Origin: Bacteroidota bacterium | GTDB taxonomy: Bacteria > Bacteroidota > Rhodothermia > Rhodothermales > DATKEJ01 | Direction of reading: 5' to 3' | DNA length: 35,657 bases | NCBI GenBank assembly: GCA_038749615.1 | Contig: JBCDHV010000001.1 | Span: 1 to 35,657, forward strand | Program-made: the position numbers and the translations under genes | Shown here: piece by piece, positions 246-32,141 of the stretch | Numbering within the stretch: position 1 is the first letter of the stretch | Layout of the letters: every line of letters starts with the position of its first letter | The notes under the pieces: model-generated | Databases searched by the model: none | What the model was told of the DNA's origin: nothing | What the model saw: the letters and a program-made list of their open reading frames with translations, nothing else

Positions 246-1550
246 CTAGGCCGGTAGACCAGCCCTCGGCGAAAAGAGGAAGTCCGAGATCGAGGCCGGA
301 TCGCTTGCAAGCGCCCGGGTCTCGGTTTCGCTCAGGTGTGGGCAGTGCCACGCGAGCACGGCCGCACGCTTGCCCACCGGGTCGGCCTGGAGCCGCCGGC
401 GAGCCTGTTTGACGTAGGCCGCCGTCTGGTTGATGTTCGAGTGCCCGAGCTGGTCGGCGATGTCGAAGGCGGAGAAGGCGAGGTCGGCGAGATCCGTCGC
501 GTAGCCGTCGCGCAACTGGTGAAAGCTCGTGTCCGTGAGGCCTGCGAGTTGCCGGCAGCGCGCGAAAGCATTGGTGAGGGTTGGGGCCGGCACGCGCGTT
601 CGGTTCTCGCGCATGAAGACCGGGGCCATCGGATCGTCAGCTGGCATCCGCTCCATCTCCGTGCGAAGCGCGAGGGCGGCACGCGGAGAGAGCAGGACAT
701 CGCGCTCGCGGGCGACTTTGGTCACAAACGACTCCGGACGCAGCTCGCCAGCGCGCACGTACGGGCTTGACTCTCGGCTCCAGTGGCGCACCTGCACGTA
801 GCCCGATGCGTGGCCGGCGAAGAAGACGCTCCCTCGGTTCAGAAACACCAGCTCGCTGCGGCGCAGACCAGTCGCACGAGCGACCTCGAAGGCCGCTTGG
901 AGGACAGGCCGGTCGAGACGCTCGTAGATGCGGCGGAAGTCGGCGAGCGAAACCGGTCGGTTCTTCTTCGACTGCACGCTCCGGCGCTCGAGCAAGCTGG
1001 AGCCGGTCAGGTAGTCCGCCTGAAACGCCTTGGCCGGGTTCGTGTCGCACCAGCCCTTGCGAACGGCGATCTCGAAGAGCTGCCGCACGCAGCGGCTGTA
1101 GGTCGCGATCGTGTGCGCGCTGCGAGGCGTTCCGAGCAGCCACTCGCGCACGTGTTGAGCGGTGACGTGGCGCACCGGCGTGTCAGCACCAGCGGGGAGA
1201 CGAGCGCACAGGCTCCGGAACGCGGTCTGCCGGGCTTTCAGGCTCGCCGGCCGCTGGCGCTGAAAATACCGATTCGTCTCCTCGTGCACCTGGGCCAGGG
1301 AGACGGACTTCTTGACGGGATTCCACGGATCGTAGTCGCCGCGGAGCCAGTCGAGCTTGAGTTTGCGGTACTTCTCGACGGCAAACTCGATGTCGTGCTG
1401 CGAGATGTCGCCGAGGTCGACTTCGCCCATGCGCCGGCGTACCCGTACCGGGTGGCGGTCTGGATCCTCGAACGTACCGTAAATCAGGTTGCCTTGCCGG
1501 CCGCGGTAGAGCATGCCGCGGGGCAGTTTGGGGCGTTTCGTCTTTCCCAT
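246..1550 (-). CDS. int: Tyrosine recombinase / phage integrase
   Basis: Lies in ORF 246..1604; I start it at the ATG of MGKTKRPKLP (1550). Catalytic-domain motifs are TGLRRSELVFL (Arg), HQLRDGYATDLA (HxxR) and LGHSNINQTAAYV (His...Tyr). Confidence 0.9.
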   Translation of the reverse strand: MGKTKRPKLPRGMLYRGRQGNLIYGTFEDPDRHPVRVRRRMGEVDLGDISQHDIEFAVEKYRKLKLDWLRGDYDPWNPVKKSVSLAQVHEETNRYFQRQRPASLKARQTAFRSLCARLPAGADTPVRHVTAQHVREWLLGTPRSAHTIATYSRCVRQLFEIAVRKGWCDTNPAKAFQADYLTGSSLLERRSVQSKKNRPVSLADFRRIYERLDRPVLQAAFEVARATGLRRSELVFLNRGSVFFAGHASGYVQVRHWSRESSPYVRAGELRPESFVTKVARERDVLLSPRAALALRTEMERMPADDPMAPVFMRENRTRVPAPTLTNAFARCRQLAGLTDTSFHQLRDGYATDLADLAFSAFDIADQLGHSNINQTAAYVKQARRRLQADPVGKRAAVLAWHCPHLSETETRALASDPASISDFLFSPRAGLPA

Positions 1551-1555
1551 AGGTA

Positions 1556-1593
1556 TGTGTGCGTTTGATGTCTGATGATAACAAACGCACACA
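1556..1593. promoter_or_regulatory. Perfect 12-bp inverted repeat (TGTGTGCGTTTG-N14-CAAACGCACACA) in the int / dprA-like divergent intergenic region
   Basis: Arms at 1556-1567 and 1582-1593 are exact reverse complements. The repeat sits 6 nt upstream of the int start codon on the minus strand. Confidence 0.45.
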
Positions 1594-1608
1594 AATGATT
1601 GCACAGGT

Positions 1609-4764: not shown

Positions 4765-7389
4765 TCAGTTTTCGGAGTTTAATATCCTATTTAAGTCTAG
4801 AACACCGAATGCATACCATTTGTGCCGCGTACTTGCAGACACTTCATCCATGGGCCTCACACGCCAATCGATCTGATGCGACAAATCTTCGATGTGGACC
4901 GAGAGGACGCGAGCTGCCTCTTCAAGGAAAAAGTCGAACAAAAGGTTTTTGTTGGTTTTAGGCAGTTGCTTTGTATTCATGCCGTCAGGGGAATTTCCAA
5001 ACGATTCCACATCGTCATTTGAACTTTGAGTAGCCTTCCATTGATGTTCAATTATCAAGACGTTGTCCGGGATCGGGATGAACACTGGCGCTTGATTTGA
5101 GACGAAAAACGGGTGTACAAAAACTATCTCTTCGTGCTGCAGAAAATCTGAAATGTTGGATTTACATATGGCGCCAGAACGTGTAAGCGCGAATGCTAAA
5201 TCGCCTATGTCGCCTCCAAAGGCGCTAATTTTTTCTGCTACCTCGATCTGCGTGCGAATCGGAAGACGTAAAGCCTCAGCGAGGCGGGCTTGCTCGGTAG
5301 CCCATGTTGCATAAATGGTCATATCTCCCATTAGCGCAGCCTGATTTCTGGCGGCTACACTCGGCACACTCTTTAGCACGCCCTGAAACTGAAGCGAATC
5401 GGACGCTCTGAATCCCCCAGTGGTAAGCAAGCCCCTGTCAGCGGATCTGGAGCTCGCGTTGCCGTCCTCGTCCTCATCAAAGAATGTAGGAATAGCAATG
5501 CATGCTCTTCCTAAATTGTCATCCAAGATGCGCAGTCGTGCCCCGTCTCTATCACGCTCCTTTTGGATTGACCCGCCAGAGTCGATCCGGTCAAGCAGAG
5601 TCTGCCCCTCAATACTGAGCCAGTCGTTTGCTTTCACCGCAAGAGTCAATTCGCCCTCATCGGCGTAGAGGTCGACATCCAAAGTTGGGCAAAGCCATGC
5701 GCAACATTGTGCAAGCGTGAATGTGGAGTGTCGCGCACGCGCAACTAAGAGTCCCGAATTCGCCGGCGACAGGCCATCGCGAAACCACACCCTGACGACT
5801 GTACCGGCATCAAGCAGTTCAGGTGTGACGTTGCCGGTTTTCAGAATAGGCCGGGTCCCGAGACCACCGGTAAATTCCAGTGTGAGCGTCTCGCTGCTTG
5901 CGCGGTCCGGCCGGCGTGTGACAACCCGGACGTGGTCACCCCACATGAAGACGGAGAAGAAACCAATGCCAAACTGGCCGGTGGCCTCAAACCCCTTGCG
6001 CTCCAAGCCGGGCAGCTCCGCATGCATGAGCGACGATCCCCAGAACGAGGTGCTAAAATCCAAAAAGGGTCCCGTCAGCACGTCGACCGACATACCGATA
6101 CCTGTGTCCTTAACCTCAAGCCAGTGGCCGTCGTCGTCTTGGCCAGTGTGGACGACGATGTGCCCCCAGTCGTTTTCTCTGGATTCGAGCAGCCGCCGGG
6201 CACGCACGGCGTCGGCTGCGTTCTGAATCAGCTCACGGAGAGGGACCGTAGGGCTGTCTCCGTAGAGTTTCTCGCCCCCCAAGGCAGAGATGAGGGAAAC
6301 GACATCACTCACCTGCACGCGGGCGTCGACGGGCAGCCAGCCGTTTGTGCGGACGAGCTGCGCGAGGCTTTCGGGGGCGTCGGTGTAGGCGACGCTCCGA
6401 GCTGCTAGCCGAGGCCGGTCCGTGTCGGCAAGCAGCGTGTCGGTTCGGCGCAACTCTTGGTCGACCATGCGGAGCGTGTCCGCGCAGAGCCACCACGCCT
6501 CTGCCTGGGCTTCCTCGAAATCGCTGCTCGAGGTGTACTCGAGCCGGTCTCTTTCGAGCCTGGGCTGATTGAGTTTGGCCTGAAACGTCCAGTGATCCGC
6601 GCTGTAGCCTTCAGGCCGGCGGAGCGCGTGAAGGAAGGGATCTGCCCGCCGCTTGTCCAGGTGGCTGGCGTCGGCCGTGCGGAGCATACAGGCGAGCTTG
6701 ACGGGATCGATCGTCCACCTCCTATTGAATCCCCCAGGCGCTCCTATTCTCGAGGGGAAGCCCCTTGCGATCTGATCGATAGGCCACCAATGGCTGTGGG
6801 CGATCCGGCCGATCAGCGAGCCGTAGCTGCTCCGGAGGTTCGCATCCTCAATCAGGTGGAGGGTGCCGCCGGCCGGGTCTGGCCACGAGACGAGCGCGAG
6901 CCGCTCGGCCTGCTCAGCGTGCCGCATCCGCAGCACGTGCTCGGTTGCGCGCTGGGCGATCTCAGCCGGCGGATCCTTGATCTGCTCCTCGGTAGCCGGC
7001 CGGCCGTGTTCGCGCCGGAGCATGCCGGCCACCGTGTCGAGCCAGAGGTCCGAGCTCTTCAGCTCCTCAATGCCGGCCGGGTAGGCAGCCAATCCCAGGC
7101 CGAGGTCGTGGATCAGGAAGGCGCCGCCGAGCACGTACGCCTCAGCCGGGGTGATGGGGTAATCGTCGCCGGCGATCAGGTCTGCCATCTCCCAGAGCGC
7201 GTCGATGTGCGTGATATCGTGGACCGTGAAGTCGGGGAGGTCACGACCGATCTCGGCAGCCAGCGTGGCGGCTCGCTCTCTGAAGCGCTCGAAGCTGGTA
7301 CGCAGGCGAGTGCGGTTGCTCTCTTCAGGGTCGCCCGTCCGCTGGGCCAGCGTTCTGTGCCAGAGATTCGTGTTCGCGTACCGGGACAT
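4765..7389 (-). CDS. HD-domain plus GHKL (Hsp90/MORC-type) ATPase protein, 874 aa
   Basis: The N-terminal HD-type dyads are FTVHDITHIDALW and AFLIHDLGLG. The central Bergerat fold shows LRELIQNAADA (N box), EVKDTGIGMS (G1) and TGQFGIGFFSVF (G2). Confidence 0.85.
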   Translation of the reverse strand: MSRYANTNLWHRTLAQRTGDPEESNRTRLRTSFERFRERAATLAAEIGRDLPDFTVHDITHIDALWEMADLIAGDDYPITPAEAYVLGGAFLIHDLGLGLAAYPAGIEELKSSDLWLDTVAGMLRREHGRPATEEQIKDPPAEIAQRATEHVLRMRHAEQAERLALVSWPDPAGGTLHLIEDANLRSSYGSLIGRIAHSHWWPIDQIARGFPSRIGAPGGFNRRWTIDPVKLACMLRTADASHLDKRRADPFLHALRRPEGYSADHWTFQAKLNQPRLERDRLEYTSSSDFEEAQAEAWWLCADTLRMVDQELRRTDTLLADTDRPRLAARSVAYTDAPESLAQLVRTNGWLPVDARVQVSDVVSLISALGGEKLYGDSPTVPLRELIQNAADAVRARRLLESRENDWGHIVVHTGQDDDGHWLEVKDTGIGMSVDVLTGPFLDFSTSFWGSSLMHAELPGLERKGFEATGQFGIGFFSVFMWGDHVRVVTRRPDRASSETLTLEFTGGLGTRPILKTGNVTPELLDAGTVVRVWFRDGLSPANSGLLVARARHSTFTLAQCCAWLCPTLDVDLYADEGELTLAVKANDWLSIEGQTLLDRIDSGGSIQKERDRDGARLRILDDNLGRACIAIPTFFDEDEDGNASSRSADRGLLTTGGFRASDSLQFQGVLKSVPSVAARNQAALMGDMTIYATWATEQARLAEALRLPIRTQIEVAEKISAFGGDIGDLAFALTRSGAICKSNISDFLQHEEIVFVHPFFVSNQAPVFIPIPDNVLIIEHQWKATQSSNDDVESFGNSPDGMNTKQLPKTNKNLLFDFFLEEAARVLSVHIEDLSHQIDWRVRPMDEVSASTRHKWYAFGVLDLNRILNSEN

Positions 7390-7692: not shown

Positions 7693-9579
7693 CTAGAGCA
7701 TGGGGTTATCCAAGTCCTCCTCCGAGTAGTTCATTTCCTTGAGAAGATCTTCAATATTGGTTTCCATGCCAGAGAGGAGCCGGTCAAGAACACGGTCGTA
7801 ATCATCCTCCAGCTTACCGAGGCGCTGCCGCACGCGCGTGCGGCGCACCTCAATGGCCCGAAGTCGCTCATTGTACGATTTTATCTTACCGTCGTAGCTG
7901 CCCGAAGACTCTAGTTTTTCTAGTTTTGTAGCTTCAAGACTTGCAATCTCATCCAAAAGCGACTGGTGCTTTTTTATTAGATGAATGCTAATGTTCTCAC
8001 CTGGAGATAAAGTGATTATACCTTCAACCTCCTCAAGCTCAGATCGAAGACTTTTAGTCATAGCATCGATTTGGTCAATAGATCTTGAGAAAGCTTCAGA
8101 TTCGCTGATGATAGCGTCAAGTTGCAGCAGGGCGGAGTCATATGCGTCGTCCTCTTGAGCAATCCTGGTTCTGGTGTCGCCTATTGCTGCCTGGATTTTG
8201 TTCAATAGAGCATCAGTCTTAGAGTCGGCATGTGCTTCGTCTTCCTCTACTCTAAGACGGATCTCGGCTCTTTGCTTATCGAGCTTCTCCCGCTTCTCTT
8301 TTTCAGCAGCGTCGTTTTCTCTTTTCTCATCCCTCGCCCTTTGGCGGGCTCGTCGAGATCTTTCGGCTTCGTCTAAGAGCGATTTGTCTCTACGAGCTTG
8401 TGCCTTTTTGAGGTCGAACTCGTTAAGCCATTCTTCAAAATCATAGTCGCGTAAAGGCGATCTTGAGTAAGACCGGTTCTCTTCATATTCGATATACTCA
8501 TCGTAGGCGCCTTGTATGTACCTTTCCCACCTGCTCTGGAGATACCCGTTCAGGTATAGCCTAATTGCGTGTGGCTGCAGCAATTTTATCAGAATCGTTG
8601 AAAGGAACATCCCGTAAAGCAGCAGGATGGCTAGTCGCTCGGCCTTTTGATATGCATTATTTGAGCCCATGAGCTCGATCTGGATCTGTCGATTCGCAAA
8701 TGATCCAACTAGGGAGGGGACACCGTAGGTAGTCACCAGAGAGTCGTAAGGCATGCCTTTGATTCTCGCCGACTCTGAATTGAAGAGAGAATCAATGGCG
8801 CTCAGCTCAATCTCCTTGGCCTTGATGTTCTGTTCCATGGAGATGGCAACGACACTCCTTCCATAAGACCGAGATCCCCCGGTGCCATTAATTTCTGCAG
8901 TAAGACTGTCTCTGAGTGCATCGAGAGAGCTGGTGAGTTTAGCCTTGCGGTCAGCATTTCTAGACCGGAGAGTGTCAACGAGCACTCTCCTTTGCTCGCC
9001 ACGCTTCTCGGCCAAGGCAGCGTCTATATCCTCAGTGATCAGTATCTGAGCTAGGTATGGAGCAGTTATGAACGTGAAGCCAAGCAGGACGCCAATTCGA
9101 AGCGAAACTGCCAAGAACAGCTTTAAAGATTCACCAGACGCAAGACTATATATGCGGGCAAAAATGGAATCCAAGTGTTCTGGCTTGCCCTCCCTGTCTT
9201 CCTGGGCCAAATAAGACGGTTTCGAGAAATCGCTGGTTATGAAGGTGGAATCGATAAACCATATCATTCCAGCAACAACTAGCCCAACGGCTACACCAGA
9301 GATCCACCTGCCAGCCGTACTTTCAAAAGGCAAAATATCCTGAACAATGATCGTCCAGGTAAAGCCTTCTATGATCGCCATGGCAATGGCTAAAAACGCC
9401 ATAGCCCCTAGCCATGCTCCTGCTAGCGGTAGTAGATTCTTCCTTCCATGGGGACGCATCAGCAAGGTTCGCCTGAATCGCTCCCCTGTCGAAGGTTCGT
9501 CCCGAGTCAAATCCGGGTGCTGCGTTTCCTTAGCGCTACGGTGTTCCATAATTCCCCGCGAAGTATCAAATAATTCCAC
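7693..9579 (-). CDS. Multi-pass membrane protein with internal and long C-terminal charged coiled coils (DUF4407-like)
   Basis: Four hydrophobic helices are visible (LAGAWLGAMAFLAIAMAII, ISGVAVGLVVAGMIWFI, LFLAVSLRIGVLLGFTFI, LAILLLYGMFLSTILI). The motif EINGTGGSRSYGRS is present, followed by about 250 aa of E/K/R-rich heptad-like sequence. The start is GTG 9579 or ATG 9549. Confidence 0.75.
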   Translation of the reverse strand: MELFDTSRGIMEHRSAKETQHPDLTRDEPSTGERFRRTLLMRPHGRKNLLPLAGAWLGAMAFLAIAMAIIEGFTWTIIVQDILPFESTAGRWISGVAVGLVVAGMIWFIDSTFITSDFSKPSYLAQEDREGKPEHLDSIFARIYSLASGESLKLFLAVSLRIGVLLGFTFITAPYLAQILITEDIDAALAEKRGEQRRVLVDTLRSRNADRKAKLTSSLDALRDSLTAEINGTGGSRSYGRSVVAISMEQNIKAKEIELSAIDSLFNSESARIKGMPYDSLVTTYGVPSLVGSFANRQIQIELMGSNNAYQKAERLAILLLYGMFLSTILIKLLQPHAIRLYLNGYLQSRWERYIQGAYDEYIEYEENRSYSRSPLRDYDFEEWLNEFDLKKAQARRDKSLLDEAERSRRARQRARDEKRENDAAEKEKREKLDKQRAEIRLRVEEDEAHADSKTDALLNKIQAAIGDTRTRIAQEDDAYDSALLQLDAIISESEAFSRSIDQIDAMTKSLRSELEEVEGIITLSPGENISIHLIKKHQSLLDEIASLEATKLEKLESSGSYDGKIKSYNERLRAIEVRRTRVRQRLGKLEDDYDRVLDRLLSGMETNIEDLLKEMNYSEEDLDNPML

Positions 9580-9738
9580 TCGCGAAACATGTGGAAGATC
9601 CCGTTGCTTTCAAACGTGTGATCCAATAGAAGCGGTCTGCACTCGAGGTTCTTGCATCGCATATCCACCCGGCATTCAAACCAACCACAGAATAACACAT
9701 AAAGCCGAGGATGTCACGGCAGTGATCGCGCGATCGCG

Positions 9739-9787
9739 AGCAGCCAGTCGTAGAGCGCGCTACCCAGGCCGCCGGCGACTGGCTGCT
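9739..9787 (-). terminator. 12-bp GC-rich stem (AGCAGCCAGTCG / CGACTGGCTGCT) with 25-nt loop, about 30 nt downstream of the DUF1353 gene stop
   Basis: The inverted repeat was read directly. There is no U-tract. The 12-bp palindrome GATCGCGCGATC lies adjacent at about 9724-9735. Confidence 0.3.
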
Positions 9788-9815
9788 TGATCCTTCTACT
9801 GATCTATTTTCATGC

Positions 9816-10529
9816 TCAGTCGTAACTCAGTCCGCAGTGGCGTCTGTCTGCAGGTAAGCTGAACTGCCTAGTTCCTTTGCCTCGCAAGTGCTCTCGCAAG
9901 CGAAGCCAGTCTCCGTCATACGTCCAATTTGATAGCGGTACGACTTTGACATATCCCTTCTTTCTATCGTTCTGGTTCTCTCTCCACGCGTTTCCCCCCG
10001 CTGCTCTCAGCGCGGCGTAGACTGCCCATATCCGATCTGGTCTGACTTGAAGATCTTGCATTGCAGCTCGCATGACCTTGTCCGCAGTCTCACGGTCTTC
10101 ACATTCCTGGGTCCAATAGAGATAATCGTGGATAATAGCGGCACGCTTATGCTTGCCAGCAACAGATACGTACGACCTTACACGTGGTGGTACGCTTGTC
10201 AAGTCGGTAACAAACCCTGCTGGGACAACGATTTTCTCTCCTCTGGTACCAACTTCGTAGATCATATTCTGAGCAAGCATCCAGAACTTTCCGTCCCTAA
10301 AGTCTAACAGCGCCGCCCTTGTAGGTGGTTTTCGATATGGGTCGTTAAGGTCAATTAGGTACAAATCGTCGTCGAGAAAACTCGCGCTGTCAGCAAGTGA
10401 GGTTACATAAAGCCAGAACATTTCTTTTGAAGAACTTTCACGGGGATAACTAATTTCCCTGTAGGCACACCCTGATAGCCATAGGACACATGTAAAAGCT
10501 AGAGTTACAGTAAGCGTGTACTTTCTCAT
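9816..10529 (-). CDS. DUF1353-family lipoprotein
   Basis: The start is at MRKYTL, with a signal peptide and lipobox (VLWLSGC). The DUF1353 signature is GFVTDLTSVPP...AAIIHDYLYW. Confidence 0.8.
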   Translation of the reverse strand: MRKYTLTVTLAFTCVLWLSGCAYREISYPRESSSKEMFWLYVTSLADSASFLDDDLYLIDLNDPYRKPPTRAALLDFRDGKFWMLAQNMIYEVGTRGEKIVVPAGFVTDLTSVPPRVRSYVSVAGKHKRAAIIHDYLYWTQECEDRETADKVMRAAMQDLQVRPDRIWAVYAALRAAGGNAWRENQNDRKKGYVKVVPLSNWTYDGDWLRLREHLRGKGTRQFSLPADRRHCGLSYD

Positions 10530-10820
10530 GGCAAGAATGGTCGGCACGCAGCACAAAGAGTAGGAGGGGCAAGCCTAACAGGTTTCCTACTGGCATTCTA
10601 ACGACTGATGTTGAACTTAGTCAAAGGCGTTCGGGATTGATTAAAAAATATACAGCCGGCGCAATAGACCGGAAAACCCCGGCATCCGGCATTTCAGCAC
10701 TGGCCGGCTAGTCGAGGTAAGTCTCCGGCCCATCGAGTTCAATCAGGAGAGAGTCGATGGCGTCTAGTGGCGGATCGTCGGGACGCGTGGTGCCGGTGAG
10801 GTGCCGGCGGGTGAGGAAGG

Positions 10821-10857
10821 TCACCGGCTCACCAGCCGGCTCATCTGCTGGGTGATG
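10821..10857. repeat. Direct-repeat copy A: orphan remnant of a repressor 3-prime end (minus-strand frame ...SITQQMSRLVSR-stop)
   Basis: 32/37 identical to 12767-12803, with 24 nt identical (10834-10857 = 12780-12803). The remnant frame is closed after 14 codons by the YbjQ gene stop at 10866-10868. Confidence 0.8.
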
Positions 10858-10865
10858 CTGGTTAC

Positions 10866-11918
10866 CTACGAGTGCGTCAAAACCCGCGTGAGGGCATCGG
10901 CCCTGTTGAGCAGCCGGTTGATTACTACTGGTGGGGATACGTAAGAAGAAGGAACGCCGTACACGTCTCGCCGGCAGGTTGAGCAGCGGACGTCTTCCTC
11001 ATGAAAGCTTGCTCCGCACGCACCGCACAGGCGGACCACGACCTCTTCTTTTGAAAACATGCCCACGGTGCGTTGTTCGTTCACCACGGTCACAGGGAAT
11101 TGCTGCTCGACCAGCTCGGCGACTCTGCGCATGGGATTGATGTCGCCGGCTCCGTAGCTGCGCTTGGCTGCACCCGCAGCGGTAAGCCCGTTCAACCGTA
11201 CCTCTTCGTCTTCGCTCATCAGAAGTGGCCGGATGCGCCCTGGATCGAACAGACGGCCTTGCTCGACGACGATGCGCCCGAGCTCACCTGCGGAAAGCAC
11301 CGGACGCGCTAGCCAACCATAGACCGCCTCCTTCGCCGCCTCTTCGGGAAGCGCAAGAACGTATTTGATGATGGGGCCCGGGTTATCCTTATCAAGTCGC
11401 CGCCTGCTCTGCGCCAGCTCAGCGTTGATTTGCGGCAAAGCTGCTGGCGACCGGTGTTTGGCTGCAAAGGCGAGGTCACGCCTAGAGAGCGAGGACGTGT
11501 TTGCTGCTATCTCGGCAAGACGCATTTGAACCCCGAGAGCGTCAGCGTCTATGCGACTCGGTCTGTTCGGCTGGTCAGCGGGCGTGTCTAGCGTTACTGC
11601 TGTACCAGAAGCGGTCACCATGAACATGCTTTTGCCGCCCCCTGAGACCTCGTCAAAATCGACACGCACACCCACAACTGCGTGGGCTCCGCGATCCAGA
11701 CCAGCGTCGGCAAGCTGGTCAAGGACTTCCTTGTTGATCGAGGCCAACTGCTTGTGGTACGACTGGGATCGGCCACCGAACACGTCGCTGAAGCTTGCCG
11801 CCATGTCAGCAAAAAGATTCGTGCCGGCAACGACGTAGGCCGAAACTACTCCGAGGTACCCGGTAATGCGTGCGCCTTCGACGTGTGGAGTTGTGGTGAC
11901 GATGATTGGGGAAGCCAT
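10866..11918 (-). CDS. YbjQ (UPF0145/DUF74) domain protein with helical middle region and C-terminal zinc ribbon
   Basis: The first ~105 aa align with E. coli YbjQ as I recall it (TTP.VEG..I..YLGVV...G.N.F.D......GGRS.SY.K.L...GA.AVVGV..D...V....MFMV.ASGTAV). The C-terminus carries CGACG...CSTCRR. It is the last gene of the minus-strand lysogeny operon. Confidence 0.85.
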   Translation of the reverse strand: MASPIIVTTTPHVEGARITGYLGVVSAYVVAGTNLFADMAASFSDVFGGRSQSYHKQLASINKEVLDQLADAGLDRGAHAVVGVRVDFDEVSGGGKSMFMVTASGTAVTLDTPADQPNRPSRIDADALGVQMRLAEIAANTSSLSRRDLAFAAKHRSPAALPQINAELAQSRRRLDKDNPGPIIKYVLALPEEAAKEAVYGWLARPVLSAGELGRIVVEQGRLFDPGRIRPLLMSEDEEVRLNGLTAAGAAKRSYGAGDINPMRRVAELVEQQFPVTVVNEQRTVGMFSKEEVVVRLCGACGASFHEEDVRCSTCRRDVYGVPSSYVSPPVVINRLLNRADALTRVLTHS

Positions 11919-11982: not shown

Positions 11983-12747
11983 TCAGCGGCTGGGGAAGAG
12001 TTGCTGCTGCACCGCGCCGGCCATGCTCGTAATCGCCTCCTTCACTTCGCGCATCAGCATTTGGGAAACTTGCCGGCGTGGCCACAAGACAGGGCCAACC
12101 ACACGAAAGTCCACCTTCCGTCCGGTCTCTTGCTGAATGAGTGTACCGTCGTTACCTGGGGTGAGTACTTCGTCACGGTAGCCGGTGGAGCGGTTGTCGC
12201 ATTTTAGCACGAGACTACCATCACTGAGACGCTGGACCCGCCTAAGAATGAGGCGTCCATTGACTTCGAGAACGTGGCGACCCGAGCCGGCAATGCGGTC
12301 GGAAGCTCTGTAGAAGACCACGTCACCTTCGGTTGCACTTGGCTCCATGCAGTCGCCAGTCACGGCCCAGATTCCAATCTGTCCACCAAGCTCTATCCCG
12401 AGCACGGTTTGCAGGACGTAGCGATGCAGAAAGATCTCTTCAGTCTGATCTGACCCTGTGAGCCGGCGGTCGCAGACAGTGATCGCTACGTACGCATCGC
12501 TCGGAATTGGCCGCCGAGCGGAAGAGACCACGCTTGCAACTTCGCCTTCAGCTAGCCACTCGAAAGACACTTCCAATACGTGGGCATACAGAGCAAGCGC
12601 TCGGTTTGGAACGGGGTACTTCCCGGATTCATGTCGAACCACGCTGCGTAGATGCATCCCAGTCTTGTCCGCTAATTCGGACTGCGTCAGTGATCGGCGC
12701 TTCCGAGCTTTTTTCAGGCGGACAGAAACAGGGGACTCAGAAGGCAT
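11983..12747 (-). CDS. CI/LexA-like HTH-XRE plus S24-fold protein with substituted catalytic dyad (Ser to Cys, Lys to Arg)
   Basis: The HTH is RRSLTQSELADKTGMHLRSVVRHESG. The S24 region reads GDCMEP instead of G(D/T)SMEP, and LILRRV instead of VKRL/VKRI. Confidence 0.85.
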   Translation of the reverse strand: MPSESPVSVRLKKARKRRSLTQSELADKTGMHLRSVVRHESGKYPVPNRALALYAHVLEVSFEWLAEGEVASVVSSARRPIPSDAYVAITVCDRRLTGSDQTEEIFLHRYVLQTVLGIELGGQIGIWAVTGDCMEPSATEGDVVFYRASDRIAGSGRHVLEVNGRLILRRVQRLSDGSLVLKCDNRSTGYRDEVLTPGNDGTLIQQETGRKVDFRVVGPVLWPRRQVSQMLMREVKEAITSMAGAVQQQLFPSR

Positions 12748-12766: not shown

Positions 12767-12803
12767 CTACCGGTTTACGAGCCGGCTCATCTGCTGGGTG
12801 ATG
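12767..12803. repeat. Direct-repeat copy B: genuine 3-prime end of the CI repressor gene (...TITQQMSRLVNR-stop)
   Basis: This is the partner of 10821-10857, 1946 bp away. Confidence 0.8.
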
Positions 12804-13504
12804 GTTGAGAGGATCGCCTGAGGCGTGTCCGGCGGAAAGACGACCCGGCCGCGAACGTTGACGCGCAACCGCAGGTCGTTGTCGTCGTCGCTGTACATGT
12901 CTTCACCCAGCGGTCGCAGCGTGCGGGTGACGTGAGCCGGATTGTCGCTCACCACCTTGATCGCGCCGCCTCCGAGCTTCTCGATGCGCTTGACCTCTTC
13001 GCCGTCGTCGTCGTCGAAGTAGAGCACGTAGCGGCCGGCGGCTGTGATGCCGTGGACCACCTCGACAAGAATGGGAGTGCCGTCGGGCAGCCACGGCTCC
13101 ATCGAGGTGCCACGCACCCTCGTCCAGTACGCCTCATCGGAATCGAGCGTGCGGCCACTCGTCCATGCCTTCAGGACGTCCACCGGGGTAATGATGTATT
13201 CGCCCGTGTCCTCTTGCTCTTGGCCCGGGCCGGCTCCGACGCCGCCGGCAAAATATCGATGCCGGACAACGCTGGAGGTACCTTCAGTCAGGCTTTCGGA
13301 GTGGCCGTTTGAGAGAGTTTGTTCGCCTTCTCCAATGGAGTGAAGCAGCCAGGCCCTTTTGTTTTTAGGAATTCTTCCGCCCAGATAATTCTTGAGCGTG
13401 GAGACTGAAATCTTGAGAGAGACGGCTGTCTCCTCTTGGTTTAAGCCCTTCTCTAGCATCCACGATCGAAGTAGAGCAGAGATTTTATCAGGTGAAATAG
13501 TCAA
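12767..13504 (-). CDS. CI-type prophage repressor (HTH plus intact S24 autopeptidase domain)
   Basis: The HTH is LNQEETAVSLKISVSTLKNYL. The S24 Ser motif is VRGTSMEPW and the Lys motif is EEVKRIEKL. The apparent start is TTG at 13504. It is divergent from an RHH gene. Confidence 0.85.
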   Translation of the reverse strand: MTISPDKISALLRSWMLEKGLNQEETAVSLKISVSTLKNYLGGRIPKNKRAWLLHSIGEGEQTLSNGHSESLTEGTSSVVRHRYFAGGVGAGPGQEQEDTGEYIITPVDVLKAWTSGRTLDSDEAYWTRVRGTSMEPWLPDGTPILVEVVHGITAAGRYVLYFDDDDGEEVKRIEKLGGGAIKVVSDNPAHVTRTLRPLGEDMYSDDDNDLRLRVNVRGRVVFPPDTPQAILSTITQQMSRLVNR

Positions 13505-13593
13505 TTTTAGACATTTTGATATTGCGTAGGGGCCTAAATTTGGCTATTCTACGGGTGCAAGAGCTATCTGTTACACCCTAAAGATATCAGGCC
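13505..13593. promoter_or_regulatory. Divergent immunity-switch intergenic region with candidate operator half-sites
   Basis: It lies between the CI gene (minus) and the RHH gene (plus). An imperfect inverted pair TGATAT-N3/4-TAGG occurs at 13517-13530 and 13577-13589 (reverse complement). GGGTG-N16-CACCC occurs at about 13553-13578. Confidence 0.35.
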
Positions 13594-13773
13594 ATGCCTA
13601 CGGATCAAATCATAGTTCGCGTTTCGAGGACGGAGCGCGAACGGATTGAGCGGGCCGCAGAGATCGACAGGCGGTCTCGCAATCAGTTCTTGAGAGTCCA
13701 CGGCCTCGAAAAAGCCGAGCGTGTGTTGCGCGAAGCCGGCGAACTCGAACGCGAGGAGGCCGGCGATGCCTAG
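13594..13773 (+). CDS. Ribbon-helix-helix (CopG/Arc-like) protein, 59 aa; positional Cro analog
   Basis: It is not in the ORF track because it is under 60 aa. My translation is MPTDQIIVRVSRTERERIERAAEIDRRSRNQFLRVHGLEKAERVLREAGELEREEAGDA, which has a beta-strand/helix/helix pattern. Its stop overlaps the next start (ATGCCTAG). Confidence 0.6.
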   Translation: MPTDQIIVRVSRTERERIERAAEIDRRSRNQFLRVHGLEKAERVLREAGELEREEAGDA

Positions 13774-25996: not shown

Positions 25997-26416
25997 ATGG
26001 CAAGAAAGCGGAAGAGGCAGCTCGACGTGCACGACCAGGCCCAGGCCGTGCTCATCGCCGGCGTCGAGGGCGACGAGGCGGCGCTGGAGCGGTTCGGCGT
26101 GTCGCGCCGTAGCCTCCAGCGTTACAAGCGGTTGGCGCAGGAAGAAGGCAGCGAACTGGCGCGAGTTGTCGCAGCCTACGCGCGCGAGCTGGCCGGCGAG
26201 CCTGGCAAGGCCCACGACTTCGCCGGCTTCCTGAAGGGCCAGATCGAGGCCATGAGCCAGCTTTTCTTCGAAAAAATCTCTGGGGCCCGCCTCAACAGCC
26301 CGGCCCACTACGAGGCGATCACGAACCACGTCCGAGCCCTCTCCGAGCGCGACGTGGCCGGCGAGTACATGGGGCGGCTGTTTCAGGTGGAGCAGTCAGA
26401 CAAGGAGGCCGAATGA
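25997..26416 (+). CDS. Probable terminase small subunit (HTH protein)
   Basis: It lies immediately upstream of, and is coupled to, the large terminase gene. The HTH-like segment is LERFGVSRRSLQRYKRLAQEEG. Confidence 0.55.
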   Translation: MARKRKRQLDVHDQAQAVLIAGVEGDEAALERFGVSRRSLQRYKRLAQEEGSELARVVAAYARELAGEPGKAHDFAGFLKGQIEAMSQLFFEKISGARLNSPAHYEAITNHVRALSERDVAGEYMGRLFQVEQSDKEAE

Positions 26417-28053
26417 TCGCCGGCATCAGGCAGGTCCAGCAGTTGGAGCGCCGCTTCGCCCGCATAGGTGCGCCGGCAAGGACCGCCGGTCTTGGCGGTA
26501 GCGTACGCCGTGCCAAGTCGGTCGATCGGCAGATCAAGCTGATTGATTTCGTGCGGCAAGTCAACCCGACCCTGCTCCGGTATGAGCATGTGCCGCTGAT
26601 GCTGGGCGTGCTTCAGAAGACAGCCGACACGCACGCCGAAGACGGCGGCTTCAGTTTCAGTCAGAGGTGGAGCTACGAACCCGACCAGCCGAATTACCGG
26701 CGGGTCATGTTTCTGATGCCCACAAGGTATTTTAAATCCGAGTGCGCGAGCCGGCTGTTCTCGGCCTATCTCTCGTTTCGCTTCCCAGAGAAATGGGCAG
26801 GGGTGACGAGCTACAACGCCAACCTTGCCTACGAACTCAACGGCAAGGCGAGAGAGTACTACCAACTTGCTGCCGGCCGCATTGCGGGCGCGTCCAAGTC
26901 GGTCAAGCGCTGGGAGACGGGTCTAGGTGGTGGCGTGTGGGCCGATGGCACAGGCGGCGCGCTCTTGGGCCGTGGGTTTCATCACGGCACCATCGATGAT
27001 CCGACCAAACCAAAGGACGCGAGCAGCTTGGTATACCAGCGCATGTTCGAGACGTGGTATCCGTCGACCTTCCTAAGCCGGCGCGAGCCAGGGGCCTCCA
27101 TCGCGTTCGTGATGCAGCGTCTCGGACCAAAAGACGCGGTGGACTACTTGTTTCGCCGGGAAGTTGGTGACGGGACCGAGGAAGCGCCAGAGCACTGGCA
27201 TGTCGTCTGTTTCGACGAGATCAAGTCGAGCGAACCGCTCTGGAGAGGCACCGGACCGATGGGACTGCCGGCCACCTGCACGCTTGAGCCAGACACCCGG
27301 TTGGTCGGCGAAGCACTGTCACCGTCTAGGTTCTCTGCCAAAGAAGTCGAAGCCCTCCAAAAATCGTCGGGTACACTGGTCGCCAAAGCGCAGCGCCAAC
27401 AGCGACCCACCGCACTCACCGGTGATTTCTGGCGGCGAGGGTGGTTCCGGGTGGTCGACGAGCTACCGGAGATCATCTACGACCGGGGCAAGGGTTGGGA
27501 CACCGCGCACACCCGAAACGACCGCAATGCCGCGTCGGCGTTTGTCGAGACCTGCCGCGGGCCTGGCCCAGACGGCGAGTTCAAGATCTATGTCACGGAC
27601 GCCGATTGGGCCTGGGTCGAGCAGCCCGAACTCGTGCACTGGATGGGCGGGCCGGCCTACGCGGATTCAGAGCTTGTTCCGGTCAAGGGGCCGCACTACA
27701 TCGAGGACAAAGCCTCCGGCAAAGGCGCGTTGAACTGGCTCAGTGCTGCCGGCGTCTACGCGGAACCCGTCTCGGTGGACGGCGACAAGTTCAAGCGGGC
27801 CTCGGGCGTGCAGCACATTGTGAGCTCGGGCCGCGTCTGCGTGCTGCGCTCGGTGGTTGAAAAGCTCCTCTCCGGCCTGCATGCCGATCCGCGCCGCTCG
27901 GGCCGGCAGGGCTTGCTCTCGGTCACCGCCGAGAGTCTCGCCACCGGAAACGGAGACCTGGATCTCAACGACGCCTTCGTCCAAGAGCTGGCTCGCCACA
28001 CGGCCCCGCCGTCCCACCGCGACCACATCATCGAAGAGGATCTGTACGTATGA
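26413..28053 (+). CDS. Terminase large subunit
   Basis: 546 aa, located upstream of the portal gene. ATPase-like segments are FLMPTRYFKSE and GFHHGTIDDPTKP. A C-terminal nuclease-like part reads GWDTAHT...YVTDADWAW. Confidence 0.75.
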   Translation: MIAGIRQVQQLERRFARIGAPARTAGLGGSVRRAKSVDRQIKLIDFVRQVNPTLLRYEHVPLMLGVLQKTADTHAEDGGFSFSQRWSYEPDQPNYRRVMFLMPTRYFKSECASRLFSAYLSFRFPEKWAGVTSYNANLAYELNGKAREYYQLAAGRIAGASKSVKRWETGLGGGVWADGTGGALLGRGFHHGTIDDPTKPKDASSLVYQRMFETWYPSTFLSRREPGASIAFVMQRLGPKDAVDYLFRREVGDGTEEAPEHWHVVCFDEIKSSEPLWRGTGPMGLPATCTLEPDTRLVGEALSPSRFSAKEVEALQKSSGTLVAKAQRQQRPTALTGDFWRRGWFRVVDELPEIIYDRGKGWDTAHTRNDRNAASAFVETCRGPGPDGEFKIYVTDADWAWVEQPELVHWMGGPAYADSELVPVKGPHYIEDKASGKGALNWLSAAGVYAEPVSVDGDKFKRASGVQHIVSSGRVCVLRSVVEKLLSGLHADPRRSGRQGLLSVTAESLATGNGDLDLNDAFVQELARHTAPPSHRDHIIEEDLYV

Positions 28054-28253
28054 CCAACGTCTTGCTCGCTGCCATTCTGCTTGTCCTGCTTGCTGGCTTC
28101 GGCCTCGTCCTCTGGCGAGTCCGCGTGACGGAGAACCGGCACCGCCGGCACGAAACCGCACTGCGCGGACTGCTGGCGGGACTGACCGCCGAGGACGACG
28201 ACGAAGCCTCGGTTCGCCTTCGCGACGCTCATGAATCCCTGAAACGGCCATGA
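28050..28253 (+). CDS. Small single-TM protein, 67 aa
   Basis: The TM segment is VLLAAILLVLLAGFGLVLW. ATGA overlaps link it to the terminase and portal genes. Confidence 0.55.
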   Translation: MTNVLLAAILLVLLAGFGLVLWRVRVTENRHRRHETALRGLLAGLTAEDDDEASVRLRDAHESLKRP

Positions 28254-29581
28254 ACAAATCCTTACGTCGCCTCCGCATGCCTGCGAGCAGCCGAGCGGCC
28301 AAAACGTCAACGGCGCAAACGTTTTCCAATCTGAGTGAGATCTACGCGTACCTCTCAGGCCGAGACCGCAAGGAAGGAATCCCTGATACGTATGCCGGCT
28401 ACGTTGAGATGGCCTACGACACCAACAGTGTGGTGGGCTCTGCCGTGGCGCGGATGGTCGGCAGCGCCACCGGCATTTCGGCTCGGCTCTACGAATCAAG
28501 CGGGGAGGCTTCCAAGCGCCTGAAGCTTGCTCGGCACGCCGGCTCGGTCGAAGCTGGGCTCAGCCTCAAGGCCATGGTGGCGGCCGGTACCGTGAGCGAG
28601 ATTGAGGACCACCCCATCCTCGACGCGCTGCGGTGCCCCAACGACGGGCACCAGACCACGTGGGAAGAGTGGCAGATGGCCTGGACGGCACAAGAGATCT
28701 GTGGAGGCCAGCAGTTCTTCTACGCCGAGCGTGGCCAGCGCGTTTTTGCCGAGCCACGTCTGTTTCTCTACCTGCTGCCACGGCCCGACCGCGTCCGCAT
28801 TGACGAGACCGCCGGCCGGCGAACCGGCTACCACTACAGCGGCAAGCGCCGGAACCGGACCTTTGAGGTAGGCTCGCCGCTCGAGCCCTACGGCCTTCAT
28901 CACGCCAAACTCTACGACCCGGCCCATCCGGAAACGGGTCGGAGTCCGCTTCGCAGTTTGCGCTACGAGATTGCCGGCTACAATCTCGCCATGCGCTGGA
29001 ACAATGCCTTTCTGCGCAACGGTGCCAAGCCGAGTGGATTTCGGAAGCCGGTCTCGAACTCGGCCATGGGCGCGAGCCGTACGCGAGACGAGTTGCAGCG
29101 CCGCTACGGAGGTCCCGAGAATGCCGGCCGAGTCGTAGTCGAACCCTACGAGTGGGAGGAGACCGGCAAAGTCCACCGGGACATGGATTGGAAGGACTTG
29201 GCCGAGTTCTTCATCACCCGCATCGCAGCCGGTCTGGGGGTCGATCCGATTCTGCTCGGCATGAAGAGCGCGAGCAGCTACAACAACCAACTTCAAGCCG
29301 AGCGCTCGCTCATCGCAGACAACACGCTGCCGCGCTTCGACCGGATGTACGGTGCCCTCAACACGCGGATTCTCAGGCCCGTCTACGGGGACCGGCTCTC
29401 GCTCGCCTACGATGTCACGCAGATTGCAGCGCTGCGGCCGGACCTCTCGAAGCTTGCCTCGGCTCTTCGAGACGCCTACTGGTTGACCGACAACGAGAAA
29501 CGCGCGCTCACGAACCTGCCGGCCATCCAGGGTGGCGAGGTGCACCGAGTGCCCACCAAGCTTTCAACAGAGGAGGCATGA
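28250..29581 (+). CDS. Portal protein (HK97-family type)
   Basis: 443 aa, located between terminase and protease. The segment GYNLAMRWNNAFLRNGAKPSG is portal-like. Confidence 0.8.
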   Translation: MNKSLRRLRMPASSRAAKTSTAQTFSNLSEIYAYLSGRDRKEGIPDTYAGYVEMAYDTNSVVGSAVARMVGSATGISARLYESSGEASKRLKLARHAGSVEAGLSLKAMVAAGTVSEIEDHPILDALRCPNDGHQTTWEEWQMAWTAQEICGGQQFFYAERGQRVFAEPRLFLYLLPRPDRVRIDETAGRRTGYHYSGKRRNRTFEVGSPLEPYGLHHAKLYDPAHPETGRSPLRSLRYEIAGYNLAMRWNNAFLRNGAKPSGFRKPVSNSAMGASRTRDELQRRYGGPENAGRVVVEPYEWEETGKVHRDMDWKDLAEFFITRIAAGLGVDPILLGMKSASSYNNQLQAERSLIADNTLPRFDRMYGALNTRILRPVYGDRLSLAYDVTQIAALRPDLSKLASALRDAYWLTDNEKRALTNLPAIQGGEVHRVPTKLSTEEA

Positions 29582-30968: not shown

Positions 30969-32141
30969 ATGGACGCCACCCAGCACGCCGAACTCAAGGC
31001 CGTAGCCGATCAGATTGCCAAGGCGCAGAAAGACTTCGCAGCTACCTACGCCGACGACAAAAAGACGTCCGGCGAAAAGCACGAGGAACTCACCAAGCGT
31101 GTCGCTGACATCGACGCAGCCATGAAGCTGGCTCAGTCGAAACTCGACGCCATGAAGTCGGCGCCGGCTGACTCCCAGCCGCTCACCGACGAGGACCGCG
31201 CGTACAAGTCGTATCTCGATGGTAGCATCGATGACGACGCGTTCAAGCTCATCTCCTCCGACGACGCGTCGAGTGGAGGCGTCGTCATGGGGCCGGCCGC
31301 TCGGGGATCGCTCATGGAGCGGGTTCGCGAAATGAGCCCGATGCGCGAATACGCCACCGTCATTCCGGTCTCGGGAACGGACCGCTACGAGCATCCCCGG
31401 GAGCAGTACGAAACCGACTTCGGCTTCCAGAACCGCAAGGAGCGCGAACCCGTCGTCGAAACAACGACGGGTAAGTTCGAGGTCGTCAACATCTTTGCCC
31501 ACGAGCGCTCGGCTGAGCCGGTGATCTCGAACAAGGCGCTCCGCAACGCACGCTTCGATCTGGCGGCCTACATCGAGCGCAAGTTGCGCAGCCGCTTTGC
31601 CCGCCAGGAGGGCGTCGACTACACCGTCGGTACCGGGAACGACCAAGCCAAAGGCTTCACGAAGAACACGGATATCATCCGTTTCAAGAGCGGCAACGCC
31701 ACCCGGCTCGACGATCACAAGGCGCTCTACAAGTGCATGGTCGACCTTCAAGACGAGTTTGCACTCGGTGGTCGGTGGTTCTGGAACCGGCGCACGCTCT
31801 TCAACCTGCTCTCCTTCGAGTCGAACGAGGGCGTGCCGCTCTGGAACTTCAACACGCTGCGCGAAGGCAAGCCCCCCGAATTCTTGGGCCACGCGTACGT
31901 CAATCTCGACGCGATGGCGGCGCCGGACATCAGCCAAACGGGCGCTCCCTACGAGACGGGCGACATCGCTGTGGCGTTCGGTGACATGGAAGAAGCCTAC
32001 GTCATCGTCGACGTCGAAGAGATCGAGGTCATCCGCGACGACATCACGCGCAAAGGCTTCACCAAGTTCTACGTCTCGCGCTCGACAGGCGGCGATGTCG
32101 TCGAGCCTCGCGCGCTCCGCCTGCTCGAAATCGCCGCGTAA
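30969..32141 (+). CDS. Major capsid protein (HK97 fold) with N-terminal coiled-coil delta domain
   Basis: 390 aa, with an N-terminal helical propeptide-like region. Position after the protease supports the call. Confidence 0.8.
   Translation: MDATQHAELKAVADQIAKAQKDFAATYADDKKTSGEKHEELTKRVADIDAAMKLAQSKLDAMKSAPADSQPLTDEDRAYKSYLDGSIDDDAFKLISSDDASSGGVVMGPAARGSLMERVREMSPMREYATVIPVSGTDRYEHPREQYETDFGFQNRKEREPVVETTTGKFEVVNIFAHERSAEPVISNKALRNARFDLAAYIERKLRSRFARQEGVDYTVGTGNDQAKGFTKNTDIIRFKSGNATRLDDHKALYKCMVDLQDEFALGGRWFWNRRTLFNLLSFESNEGVPLWNFNTLREGKPPEFLGHAYVNLDAMAAPDISQTGAPYETGDIAVAFGDMEEAYVIVDVEEIEVIRDDITRKGFTKFYVSRSTGGDVVEPRALRLLEIAA

Follow-up and report, generated by a model that had tools for sequence, protein, structure and literature searches.

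A YbjQ-domain fusion gene at the end of a temperate-phage repressor operon as candidate lysogen-expressed cargo

Introduction

Exclusion genes located beside the prophage repressor gene are known from temperate phages, as represented by rexA/rexB of phage lambda, sieB of P22 and bstA of BTP1. Here, we analyze a gene in a comparable position on a stretch of 35,657 nucleotides from a Bacteroidota bacterium of the order Rhodothermales (GenBank assembly GCA_038749615.1, contig JBCDHV010000001.1, positions 1 to 35,657 of the forward strand), which is referred to as the window. The gene codes for a fusion protein of 350 amino acids (aa) with an N-terminal YbjQ domain (UPF0145), a helical middle region and a C-terminal zinc ribbon, and it closes the repressor operon of a temperate phage. 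Like rexA/rexB, it is an accessory gene that immediately follows a CI gene on the same strand, in a slot that is reused across phages. It differs from the lambda genes in coding for a single protein instead of a pair and in lacking any sequence or fold similarity to their products, and while RexB is a membrane protein, no transmembrane segment was predicted in the fusion protein. The window gene resembles the Rex/Sie class by position only.

UPF0145/YbjQ proteins are widespread and also present in E. coli, and the structures available for them are about twenty years old, their function being unknown. Homopentamers have been documented in crystals of three of these proteins (1y2i, 1vr4 and 3qkb), and in one case the subunits adopt alternative conformations (PMC2954204, PMC4092069). 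The N-terminal 107 residues of the window protein share the fold of YbjQ from E. coli/Shigella and of its homologue from Bacillus cereus (1y2i, 1vr4; TM score of about 0.85, 38–39% identity), including their GGRS and acidic motifs. Whereas those are stand-alone proteins of about 105 aa, the window protein is phage-borne and contains 240 additional residues forming the helical repeat, the zinc ribbon and a final helix. The same domain order, the four cysteines and the invariant YbjQ residues recur in chromosomally encoded fusion proteins of about 360 aa (30–37% identity, 93–100% coverage), but these are encoded by stand-alone genes which mostly lie outside of prophages and, unlike the window gene, never directly behind a co-oriented repressor gene. 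Fusion proteins from Bacteroides prophages, on the other hand, occupy the same end of a CI operon and contain a YbjQ domain 54–62% identical to that of the window protein, but are unrelated to it in their C-terminal region. Finally, the Mu-like phages RS1 and RC1 carry proteins of the PHROG 15412 type in the same slot, with a YbjQ domain of about 42% identity (RS1), a zinc ribbon at the N-terminus instead of the C-terminus and no helical repeat.

Position of the gene in the repressor operon

The window contains a temperate phage with genes for an integrase (246..1604), the large terminase subunit (26413..28053), the portal protein (28250..29581) and the major head protein (30969..32141). Its immunity region comprises the following features:

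13505..13773, plus strand: divergent control region and 59-aa ribbon-helix-helix gene (13594–13773) in the cro position (open reading frame [ORF], library match)
12767..13504, minus strand: first CI-like repressor gene, CI1, 245 aa, helix-turn-helix (HTH) and Peptidase_S24 domains, intact GTSMEP and VKRIEKL motifs, Ala-Gly linker
11983..12747, minus strand: second CI-like gene, CI2, 254 aa, 434-repressor-like HTH and S24 domains, dyad-less motifs GDCMEP and LRRVQRL
10866..11918, minus strand: YbjQ–helical–zinc-ribbon fusion gene (ORF with ATG start, 350 aa), last in the repressor operon
10636..10710, minus strand: terminator-like long hairpin with U-run, probable end of the operon (minimum free energy structure of 10630–10760)

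The three genes on the minus strand are co-oriented in the order CI1, CI2 and YbjQ fusion gene, separated by 19 and 64 nt, respectively. No stable hairpin was predicted in the 64-nt gap between CI2 and the YbjQ gene (z = +1.3), and the GC-rich long hairpin with its U-run follows some 160–230 nt past the YbjQ stop codon, ahead of a promoter-like site for the next gene. Another promoter-like site is present on the minus strand in the divergent control region (13574..13546). No terminator separates the gene from the repressor genes, which lie upstream of it on the same strand; this agrees with the initial annotation of this DNA, made from the letters alone, in which it had been regarded as the terminal gene of the cI operon. 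The annotation had also described the GC content of the gene as matching that of the backbone, and this is roughly correct: it amounts to 0.597, compared to 0.607 for the window, 0.633 for the right arm of the phage, 0.592 for CI1 and 0.576 for CI2, while the genes just downstream of the YbjQ gene show a value of 0.49.

The gene in the cro position does not code for a Cro protein of the HTH type, but for a ribbon-helix-helix protein of 59 aa similar to TacA1 and NikA (E = 6e-7).

YbjQ genes behind repressors in other phages

Genes for stand-alone YbjQ proteins of 107 aa were considered in viral contigs and rejected, as the ORF calls yielded fusion proteins of 313–373 aa with a different C-terminus. 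These IMG/VR genes code for fusions at CI operons, which links the YbjQ domain to immunity regions. About 50 IMG/VR loci besides the window code for such proteins, with N-terminal YbjQ domains 54–62% identical to that of the window protein. If the two fusion families are compared by hhalign, only 112 columns of the YbjQ domain are aligned (59% identity, E = 3e-51), whereas the C-termini are unrelated. About 42 of the 52 IMG/VR loci with YbjQ genes, which are highly redundant, have an S24 gene in the same orientation no more than about 2 kb upstream of the YbjQ gene. Fusions of this type belong to Bacteroides (B. intestinalis, B. caecigallinarum and others; 436 matches); those in Bacteroides prophages are 313–327 aa long, and one protein cluster comprises 587 member sequences. 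Representative genes and operons, including those of the Mu-like phages, are:

L115 to L118, 9001-9966, and L119, 8801-9766: YbjQ fusion gene of Bacteroides prophages (gene calls and Pfam)
L011, 5463-8942, and L038, 5790-8978: operons consisting of CI, variable gene(s) and YbjQ fusion gene
L120 (RS1), 388-873, minus strand, and L122 (RC1), 3398-3883, plus strand: zinc-ribbon and YbjQ gene, identical copies

The loci L115–L119 show the operon structure in its genomic context. A repressor gene (HTH_3 and S24 domains, 223 or 233 aa) is followed by a gene for a protein of 489 or 492 aa, the YbjQ fusion gene (321 aa) and a 64-aa ORF; the operon is divergent from an early operon with WYL_2, AAA_24 and NinG genes in this order, and is directly followed by the host housekeeping genes mltG, POR, rplT, infC and thrS. 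The variable genes of the Bacteroides operons code either for the 489/492-aa protein of unknown function with a weak HSDR_N match, or for a DUF4236, FtsK-gamma and TPR protein together with an SH3 and DUF3761 protein. Operons of the L011 type contain two genes between the S24 gene and the YbjQ fusion gene, and in L019, L021, L005 and L035 the S24 gene overlaps the fusion gene or is at most 16 nt away from it. A further IMG/VR prophage (L055) contains an S24 gene followed after 54 nt by a gene for a YbjQ protein of 177 aa; it was the only locus found again in a scan with an additional alignment (A8). The Mu-like phages RS1 of Rhodovulum and RC1 of Rhodobacter carry a gene annotated as "CI-like repressor" and, 17 nt behind it at the genome end, a gene for a protein of 161 aa annotated as hypothetical, which consists of an N-terminal CxxC...CxxC ribbon and a YbjQ domain. 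YbjQ-domain genes are thus recurrent cargo at the end of repressor operons in about four lineages, including the window phage.

Two further sets of matches were not counted: those in the E. coli phage vB_EcoM-813R9 represent flanking host DNA (ybjP-ybjQ-amiD), and the records labelled Listeria and "Bacteriophage sp." are unverified contigs containing YbjQ genes of 108–110 aa without a CI-like neighbour.

The repressors upstream of these genes vary much more than the fusions themselves. The YbjQ fusions of L038, L041 and L046 are 100% identical, but their upstream repressors share only 25–26% identity with each other; likewise, the fusions of L011, L006, L019 and L035 are 89–99% identical, and for some pairs of repressors (L011-type vs. 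L035) the alignment spans only about 36 residues. The S24 proteins upstream in the other phages keep the catalytic dyad (GDSM/K) and are plain phage repressors. This is the classic picture of a mosaic immunity region in which the downstream gene stays constant. Because identical fusions are found behind such dissimilar repressors, it is the slot which is conserved rather than a partner, and a specific sensor/effector pair of repressor and YbjQ protein is disfavoured. If the numerous chromosomal copies that stand alone (described below) are also considered, the mosaicism indicates that the protein works on its own and that the timing of its expression is the conserved trait.

Domain structure of the fusion protein

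The window protein is composed of four segments:

11586..11906, minus strand: YbjQ/UPF0145 domain, aa 5–111, predicted pentamerising core (Pfam, alignment, Foldseek)
11094..11546, minus strand: all-helical ARM/HEAT-like region, aa 125–275 (DSSP on the AlphaFold2 [AF2] model, weak Foldseek matches)
10956..11045, minus strand: four-Cys zinc ribbon, aa 292–321 (C298, C301, C312, C315, D318, G321; conserved columns)
10875..10934, minus strand: C-terminal helix, aa 329–348 (AF2/DSSP; P329 conserved)

The N-terminal part matches the Pfam family YbjQ_1 (PF01906) with residues 5–109 over profile positions 1–102 of 103 (E = 1.9e-27, 96.3 bits at a cut-off of 23), and the protein is also matched by PHROG 15412, a family of unknown function (E = 7e-30). 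An AF2 model of the full protein, which had been suggested as a check, was built on 120 homologues as a monomer and reached a mean predicted local distance difference test (pLDDT) score of 90.2 and a predicted TM score (pTM) of 0.73. The first 111 residues of this model retrieve the solved YbjQ subunits in Foldseek searches (1y2i_A with E = 6e-8, a TM score of about 0.85 on the target and a root-mean-square deviation of 2.4 Å; 1vr4_A with E = 1.4e-6) and show the beta-alpha-beta2 fold similar to a dodecin subunit. The assignment of the N-terminal ~105 aa to the YbjQ/UPF0145 fold in the initial annotation is therefore borne out by profile as well as structure, and so is its description of a helical region followed by a C-terminal CxxC...CxxC zinc ribbon, given the helices in the model and four conserved cysteines. 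All 14 of the invariant columns in the 120-sequence alignment are kept in the window protein, as are the four cysteines, and its YbjQ domain contains the family-invariant residues D38, D45, FGGRS at 47–51, Y54, D87, D89, K96, M98 and M100. The residues of highest conservation (D38, D45, FGGRS, Y54, D87, D89 and K96) cluster in the YbjQ domain, and a part of them belongs to a loop of low model confidence, as would be expected of a flexible ligand site.

Nine helices were assigned between about residues 125 and 273. No Pfam family was found for this region across the 120 family members, and its matches to ARM, HEAT and alphaRep solenoids in Foldseek are weak (E = 0.02–0.1). Assignment to a specific fold was rejected, as these generic matches did not fall below E = 0.02 and the low-probability matches to GABA-A receptors were discarded; a search of structures in BFVD yielded a single match, which covers the YbjQ domain only. 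The helical region is acidic across the family, with a median isoelectric point of 5.3. Behind it, three short strands carry the pairs C298-x2-C301 and C312-x2-C315, before the final helix at 329–348. Among the 120 full-length homologues, C312 is invariant and the three other cysteines are conserved in at least 96%, all four being present in the window protein. Matches to Zn_Ribbon_1 and Zn_ribbon_RanBP are weak and limited to some members of the family (Zn_ribbon_RanBP in 5 of 120, best E = 1.5e-4). Fingers of the RanBP2/NZF type follow the pattern W-x-C-x(2,4)-C-x3-N-x6-C-x2-C. This assignment (PF00641) was rejected for the window protein, which lacks a match to the hidden Markov model as well as the W and N residues, and judged from its sequence the module is best called a generic four-Cys zinc ribbon.

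The family of YbjQ–helical–zinc-ribbon proteins

Full-length homologues of the window protein are numerous, with 30–37% identity over 91–100% coverage and a length of about 360 aa. A profile of the helical/zinc-ribbon module, which recovers the window protein at E = 2.7e-50, retrieved 824 clusters at 50% identity from 1.84 billion representatives. In essentially all of them the module starts near residue 130 of proteins with 350–380 aa, and no other N-terminal partner was found among these representatives, in which the module is either preceded by about 130 residues or part of a truncated fragment. The combination represents a fixed family, whose members are annotated only as "YbjQ family protein". 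They occur in Chitinophagaceae, Sphingobacteriaceae, Flavobacteriaceae, Bacteroidales, Verrucomicrobiota and others, in genomes of 28% to 70% GC; cultured carriers are Niastella soli, Mucilaginibacter roseus, Pelobium manganitolerans and a Flavobacterium sp. The YbjQ domain of the window protein is 50–66% identical to those of its own family. In the other regions it is an outlier: L149 and R296 replace the tryptophans W149 and W296 conserved in more than 90% of the members, F replaces the Asn which is the majority consensus in the zinc ribbon, and the C-terminal region shows only 15–27% identity to other members, compared to a median of 33% among those.

Two loci of the family show unusual arrangements. 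In one metagenomic contig (L109, 1756-3317), a stand-alone YbjQ gene of 112 aa precedes a full fusion gene at a distance of 116 nt, with a transposase gene after them, and mixed pentamers from this pair of YbjQ proteins are conceivable. In L112 (7459-9098), the last 4 nt of a 181-aa gene without a Pfam match are shared with the fusion gene, in a region which also contains two Fic genes, an ArdC-N fragment, DUF4357 and DUF4145.

The probable inserted cassette and the second CI-like gene

The second CI-like gene and the YbjQ gene of the window are bracketed exactly by a direct repeat:

12769..12803, no strand assigned: copy A, last 11 codons and stop codon of the CI1 gene (35 nt, 91% identity)
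10823..10857, no strand assigned: copy B, non-coding remnant of a cI 3' end, 8 nt past the YbjQ stop codon (repeat search)

The copies are spaced by 1946 nt and contain an exact core of 23 nt, which occurs twice against an expectation of zero. Because this duplication of the 3' end of CI1 encloses CI2 and the YbjQ gene, the two genes appear to have been inserted as a unit behind CI1, and the 1946-bp segment looks like an inserted immunity cassette or recombination scar behind the resident repressor. We interpret it as part of the immunity region of another, heteroimmune phage, consisting of a repressor gene and its downstream cargo, that recombined into this position. No relatives of the window phage with an empty site were found in IMG/VR by searching with the exact 23-nt core of the repeat and both CI-like proteins.

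The suggestion of a degenerate CI paralog upstream of the YbjQ gene proved to be real. CI2 retains a good HTH domain (HTH_3, E = 2.9e-9; DNA-binding domain of the 434 repressor, E = 2e-4) and a recognizable Peptidase_S24 domain (E = 1.2e-6), but the catalytic dyad of the latter is replaced, Ser by Cys (GDCMEP) and Lys by Arg (LRRVQRL), while CI1 contains GTSMEP and VKRIEKL, and nine CI-like proteins from other phages, unlike CI2, carry G[DE]SM and the Lys residue. The linker of CI1 also contains an Ala-Gly site, which is absent from that of CI2. From these motifs, CI1 is probably an SOS-cleavable prophage repressor, and CI2 is predicted to be non-cleavable. CI2 is a diverged version of a genuine phage repressor. 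Only one homologue of it was detectable in 5.8 billion proteins (P0265, 43% identity), which serves another phage as its sole repressor and is encoded divergently from an early operon with AAA_24 and DEAD helicase genes; its S24 domain shows the same Cys as CI2, but has kept the Lys. Its gene is followed by an ORF for a 63-aa membrane protein and not by a YbjQ gene. The notion that the CI paralog acts as a sensor or regulator partner of the YbjQ protein is not upheld by these data, considering also that repressors vary behind identical fusions. CI2 could be an SOS-insensitive second immunity repressor aimed at a heteroimmune phage. The locus provides a clear example of a transplanted cassette of repressor plus cargo, with a second repressor predicted to be non-cleavable.

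Proposed function and alternatives

We propose that the YbjQ fusion gene is an accessory cargo gene ("moron") of the temperate phage which is expressed in the lysogen, where it would be transcribed together with the repressor. The protein would assemble via its YbjQ domain into a homopentameric ring displaying five arms of helical regions and zinc ribbons, and because these regions are acidic in the family, the arms are more likely to bind protein than nucleic acid. The ring may serve as the working part shared by these proteins, and target recognition may fall to the C-terminal domain, which varies, without need of a CI-like neighbour as partner. A constant core with swappable terminal domains which is co-expressed with the repressor would, by analogy, follow the pattern of exclusion or abortive-infection proteins protecting the lysogen. 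We therefore regard exclusion or abortive infection of superinfecting phages by a self-contained single protein as the most likely function, although this is speculative and we assign it a probability of roughly 0.4; it is the position of the gene from which an anti-phage function appears plausible. In the paper on Bacteroides phage BV01, the repressor gene is described as the most highly transcribed prophage gene.

If the protein acts in exclusion, this would provide the first function for UPF0145, including the stand-alone chromosomal copies, and a new single-gene defence family with a pentameric, non-enzymatic-looking core, adding to the few characterised cargo genes of lysogeny operons in Bacteroidota. 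It appears possible, if doubtful, that YbjQ/UPF0145 proteins constitute an unrecognised class of prophage cargo co-expressed with repressors, in which a pentameric core is combined with interchangeable recognition domains to yield single-protein exclusion or abortive-infection factors; the interchangeable parts would then be the ARM-like region and zinc ribbon of the window protein, the other helical domain of the Bacteroides fusions and the N-terminal zinc ribbon of the Mu-like phages. The recurrence extends to Bacteroides prophages abundant in the human gut and to the cultured Mu-like phages RS1 and RC1, which offers a cheap experimental entry, and even if the function is not exclusion, the recurrent linkage still points to lysogen physiology or the control of induction.

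Several findings speak against an anti-phage function. None of the 5027 models of PADLOC-DB v2 matched the window protein at E ≤ 0.1, and no significant PADLOC match was obtained for nine further proteins, comprising related phage YbjQ proteins and operon neighbours, nor for the variable gene products of the Bacteroides operons; together with the searched literature, in which no role of YbjQ in phage defence was found, this agrees with the earlier statement that no defence role is described for such proteins. The scans for promoters and terminators followed sigma-70/E. coli-type and intrinsic-terminator rules, which may not fit the Bacteroidota host. The Bacteroides prophage cases probably represent one broad phage lineage, so that the independent recruitments are few (about four), and from its sequence the window protein may have drifted away from its family. 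The family itself consists mostly of chromosomal stand-alone genes, and YbjQ is a conserved gene of unknown function in E. coli. In the catalogue of the fusions and their neighbours which had been called for, no partner gene was common to more than four of 37 Bacteroidota loci in an all-against-all clustering of ORFs, these 37 coming from a Bacteroidota-only subset of the alignment and being biased to that phylum, and the neighbours common to three or four loci reflect local synteny of related genomes. A co-oriented CI-like gene directly upstream was found in 0 of the 48 other family loci, the small HTH gene 306 bp upstream of the fusion gene in L001 being divergent. The flanking genes are mostly of housekeeping type, and in Mucilaginibacter and other Sphingobacteriaceae the gene is part of a conserved pgi-prfB-hydrolase block, which is easier to reconcile with a general role in the cell than with a defence island; other chromosomal copies are found beside uvrB, FBPase or AhpC. 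The proposed occupation of a Rex-like slot thus holds at the level of the YbjQ domain (Bacteroides prophages, L055 and RS1/RC1), but not for the exact fusion family. Judged by the latter alone, the homologues are not tied to immunity regions, whereas the association is seen in the survey of the YbjQ domain.

These chromosomal copies favour a different reading, in which the gene serves lysogenic conversion by supplying an extra cytoplasmic YbjQ-family protein for the stress or metabolic physiology of the host, the slot merely providing expression in the lysogen. The fixed architecture and the housekeeping synteny of the family fit this well, as does the conserved chromosomal YbjQ of E. coli. 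We consider it somewhat unlikely, given that four phage lineages repeatedly place such genes directly after the immunity repressor, in Mu-like phages at the very genome end, and that a core kept constant while the C-terminal domain varies is seen more typically in conflict genes. Some chromosomal copies, though a minority, are also found in mobile or conflict settings, such as an integrase-primase element or an island with toxin-antitoxin and nSTAND genes, or adjoins HNH, DUF559, Fic/DUF4145, a Type IIG restriction-modification enzyme or an OLD/GajA-like ATPase; defence-type matches among 136 flanking ORFs were KwaB, PDC-S05 and AriA. Only one IMG/VR contig contains a gene of the window-type architecture, located between a tape-measure gene and two integrase genes. 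The tight linkage to CI might instead indicate a regulator of the lysis-lysogeny decision, for example as a stabiliser or antagonist of CI or as a small-molecule sensor by means of its ring. The overlaps or gaps of 2–54 nt in L005, L019, L021, L035, L055 and RS1/RC1 and the joint transfer of the YbjQ gene and a repressor gene as one cassette in the window are in line with this, and partners controlling the repressor from its own operon do exist, such as ImmR/ImmA of ICEBs1. Such a role is nevertheless unlikely, because a specific match between proteins is hard to reconcile with identical fusions behind repressors of 25–26% identity, many phages have other genes between CI and YbjQ, and the chromosomal family members lack a repressor nearby.

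In the window, CI2 and the YbjQ gene are adjacent, co-oriented and jointly bracketed by the 35-nt repeat, and CI2 has lost its self-cleavage residues, as might suit a protein put to new use; both features would agree with a two-gene system of CI2 as sensor or regulator and the YbjQ fusion as effector. We regard this as quite improbable, because the pair is not conserved either around P0265, the sole CI2 homologue with its 63-aa membrane ORF, or among the 48 other fusion loci, and the S24 proteins of other phages keep their dyad and vary freely while the YbjQ protein stays constant. The loss of the catalytic residues in CI2 could also mean that the repressor is dead, and if the divergence of the window fusion, the most divergent member of its family with several residues of >90% conservation missing, is taken as decay, the cassette would be a recombination scar of two now functionless passengers. 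This is the least probable of the alternatives in view of the intact full-length ORF, the complete set of invariant columns, the confident AF2 model (pLDDT 90) and a GC content adapted to that of the phage.

Other genes of the window

Further candidate cargo genes are present between the integrase gene and the immunity region. On the plus strand, adjoining the integrase gene (1609-3952), a gene for a DprA/SLOG-like protein (PF02481, E = 2e-48) extends into the beginning of a gene for a fusion of a HAD hydrolase and a phosphoribosyltransferase, and this pair may represent nucleotide-modifying or signalling cargo. A gene on the minus strand (4765-7389) codes for a protein of 874 aa in which an HD-CE domain (PF24391, E = 2.5e-54) precedes an ATPase domain of the GHKL/HATPase_c_3 type; its placement between integrase and immunity region and its composition are typical of a conflict or defence gene. 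Two minus-strand genes of low GC content (7693-10556; 0.49 vs. 0.61 for the window) are probably recent acquisitions. One codes for a protein of 628 aa with hydrophobic N-terminal segments, a long coiled coil and a weak DUF4407 match, the other for a DUF1353 protein with a lipoprotein-like N-terminus, which belongs to PHROG family 1158 ("tail assembly chaperone"). A gene for a CsgG/FlgO-like lipoprotein, an unusual phage cargo, is located on the opposite strand (20850-21863, minus) in the middle of the phage genome.

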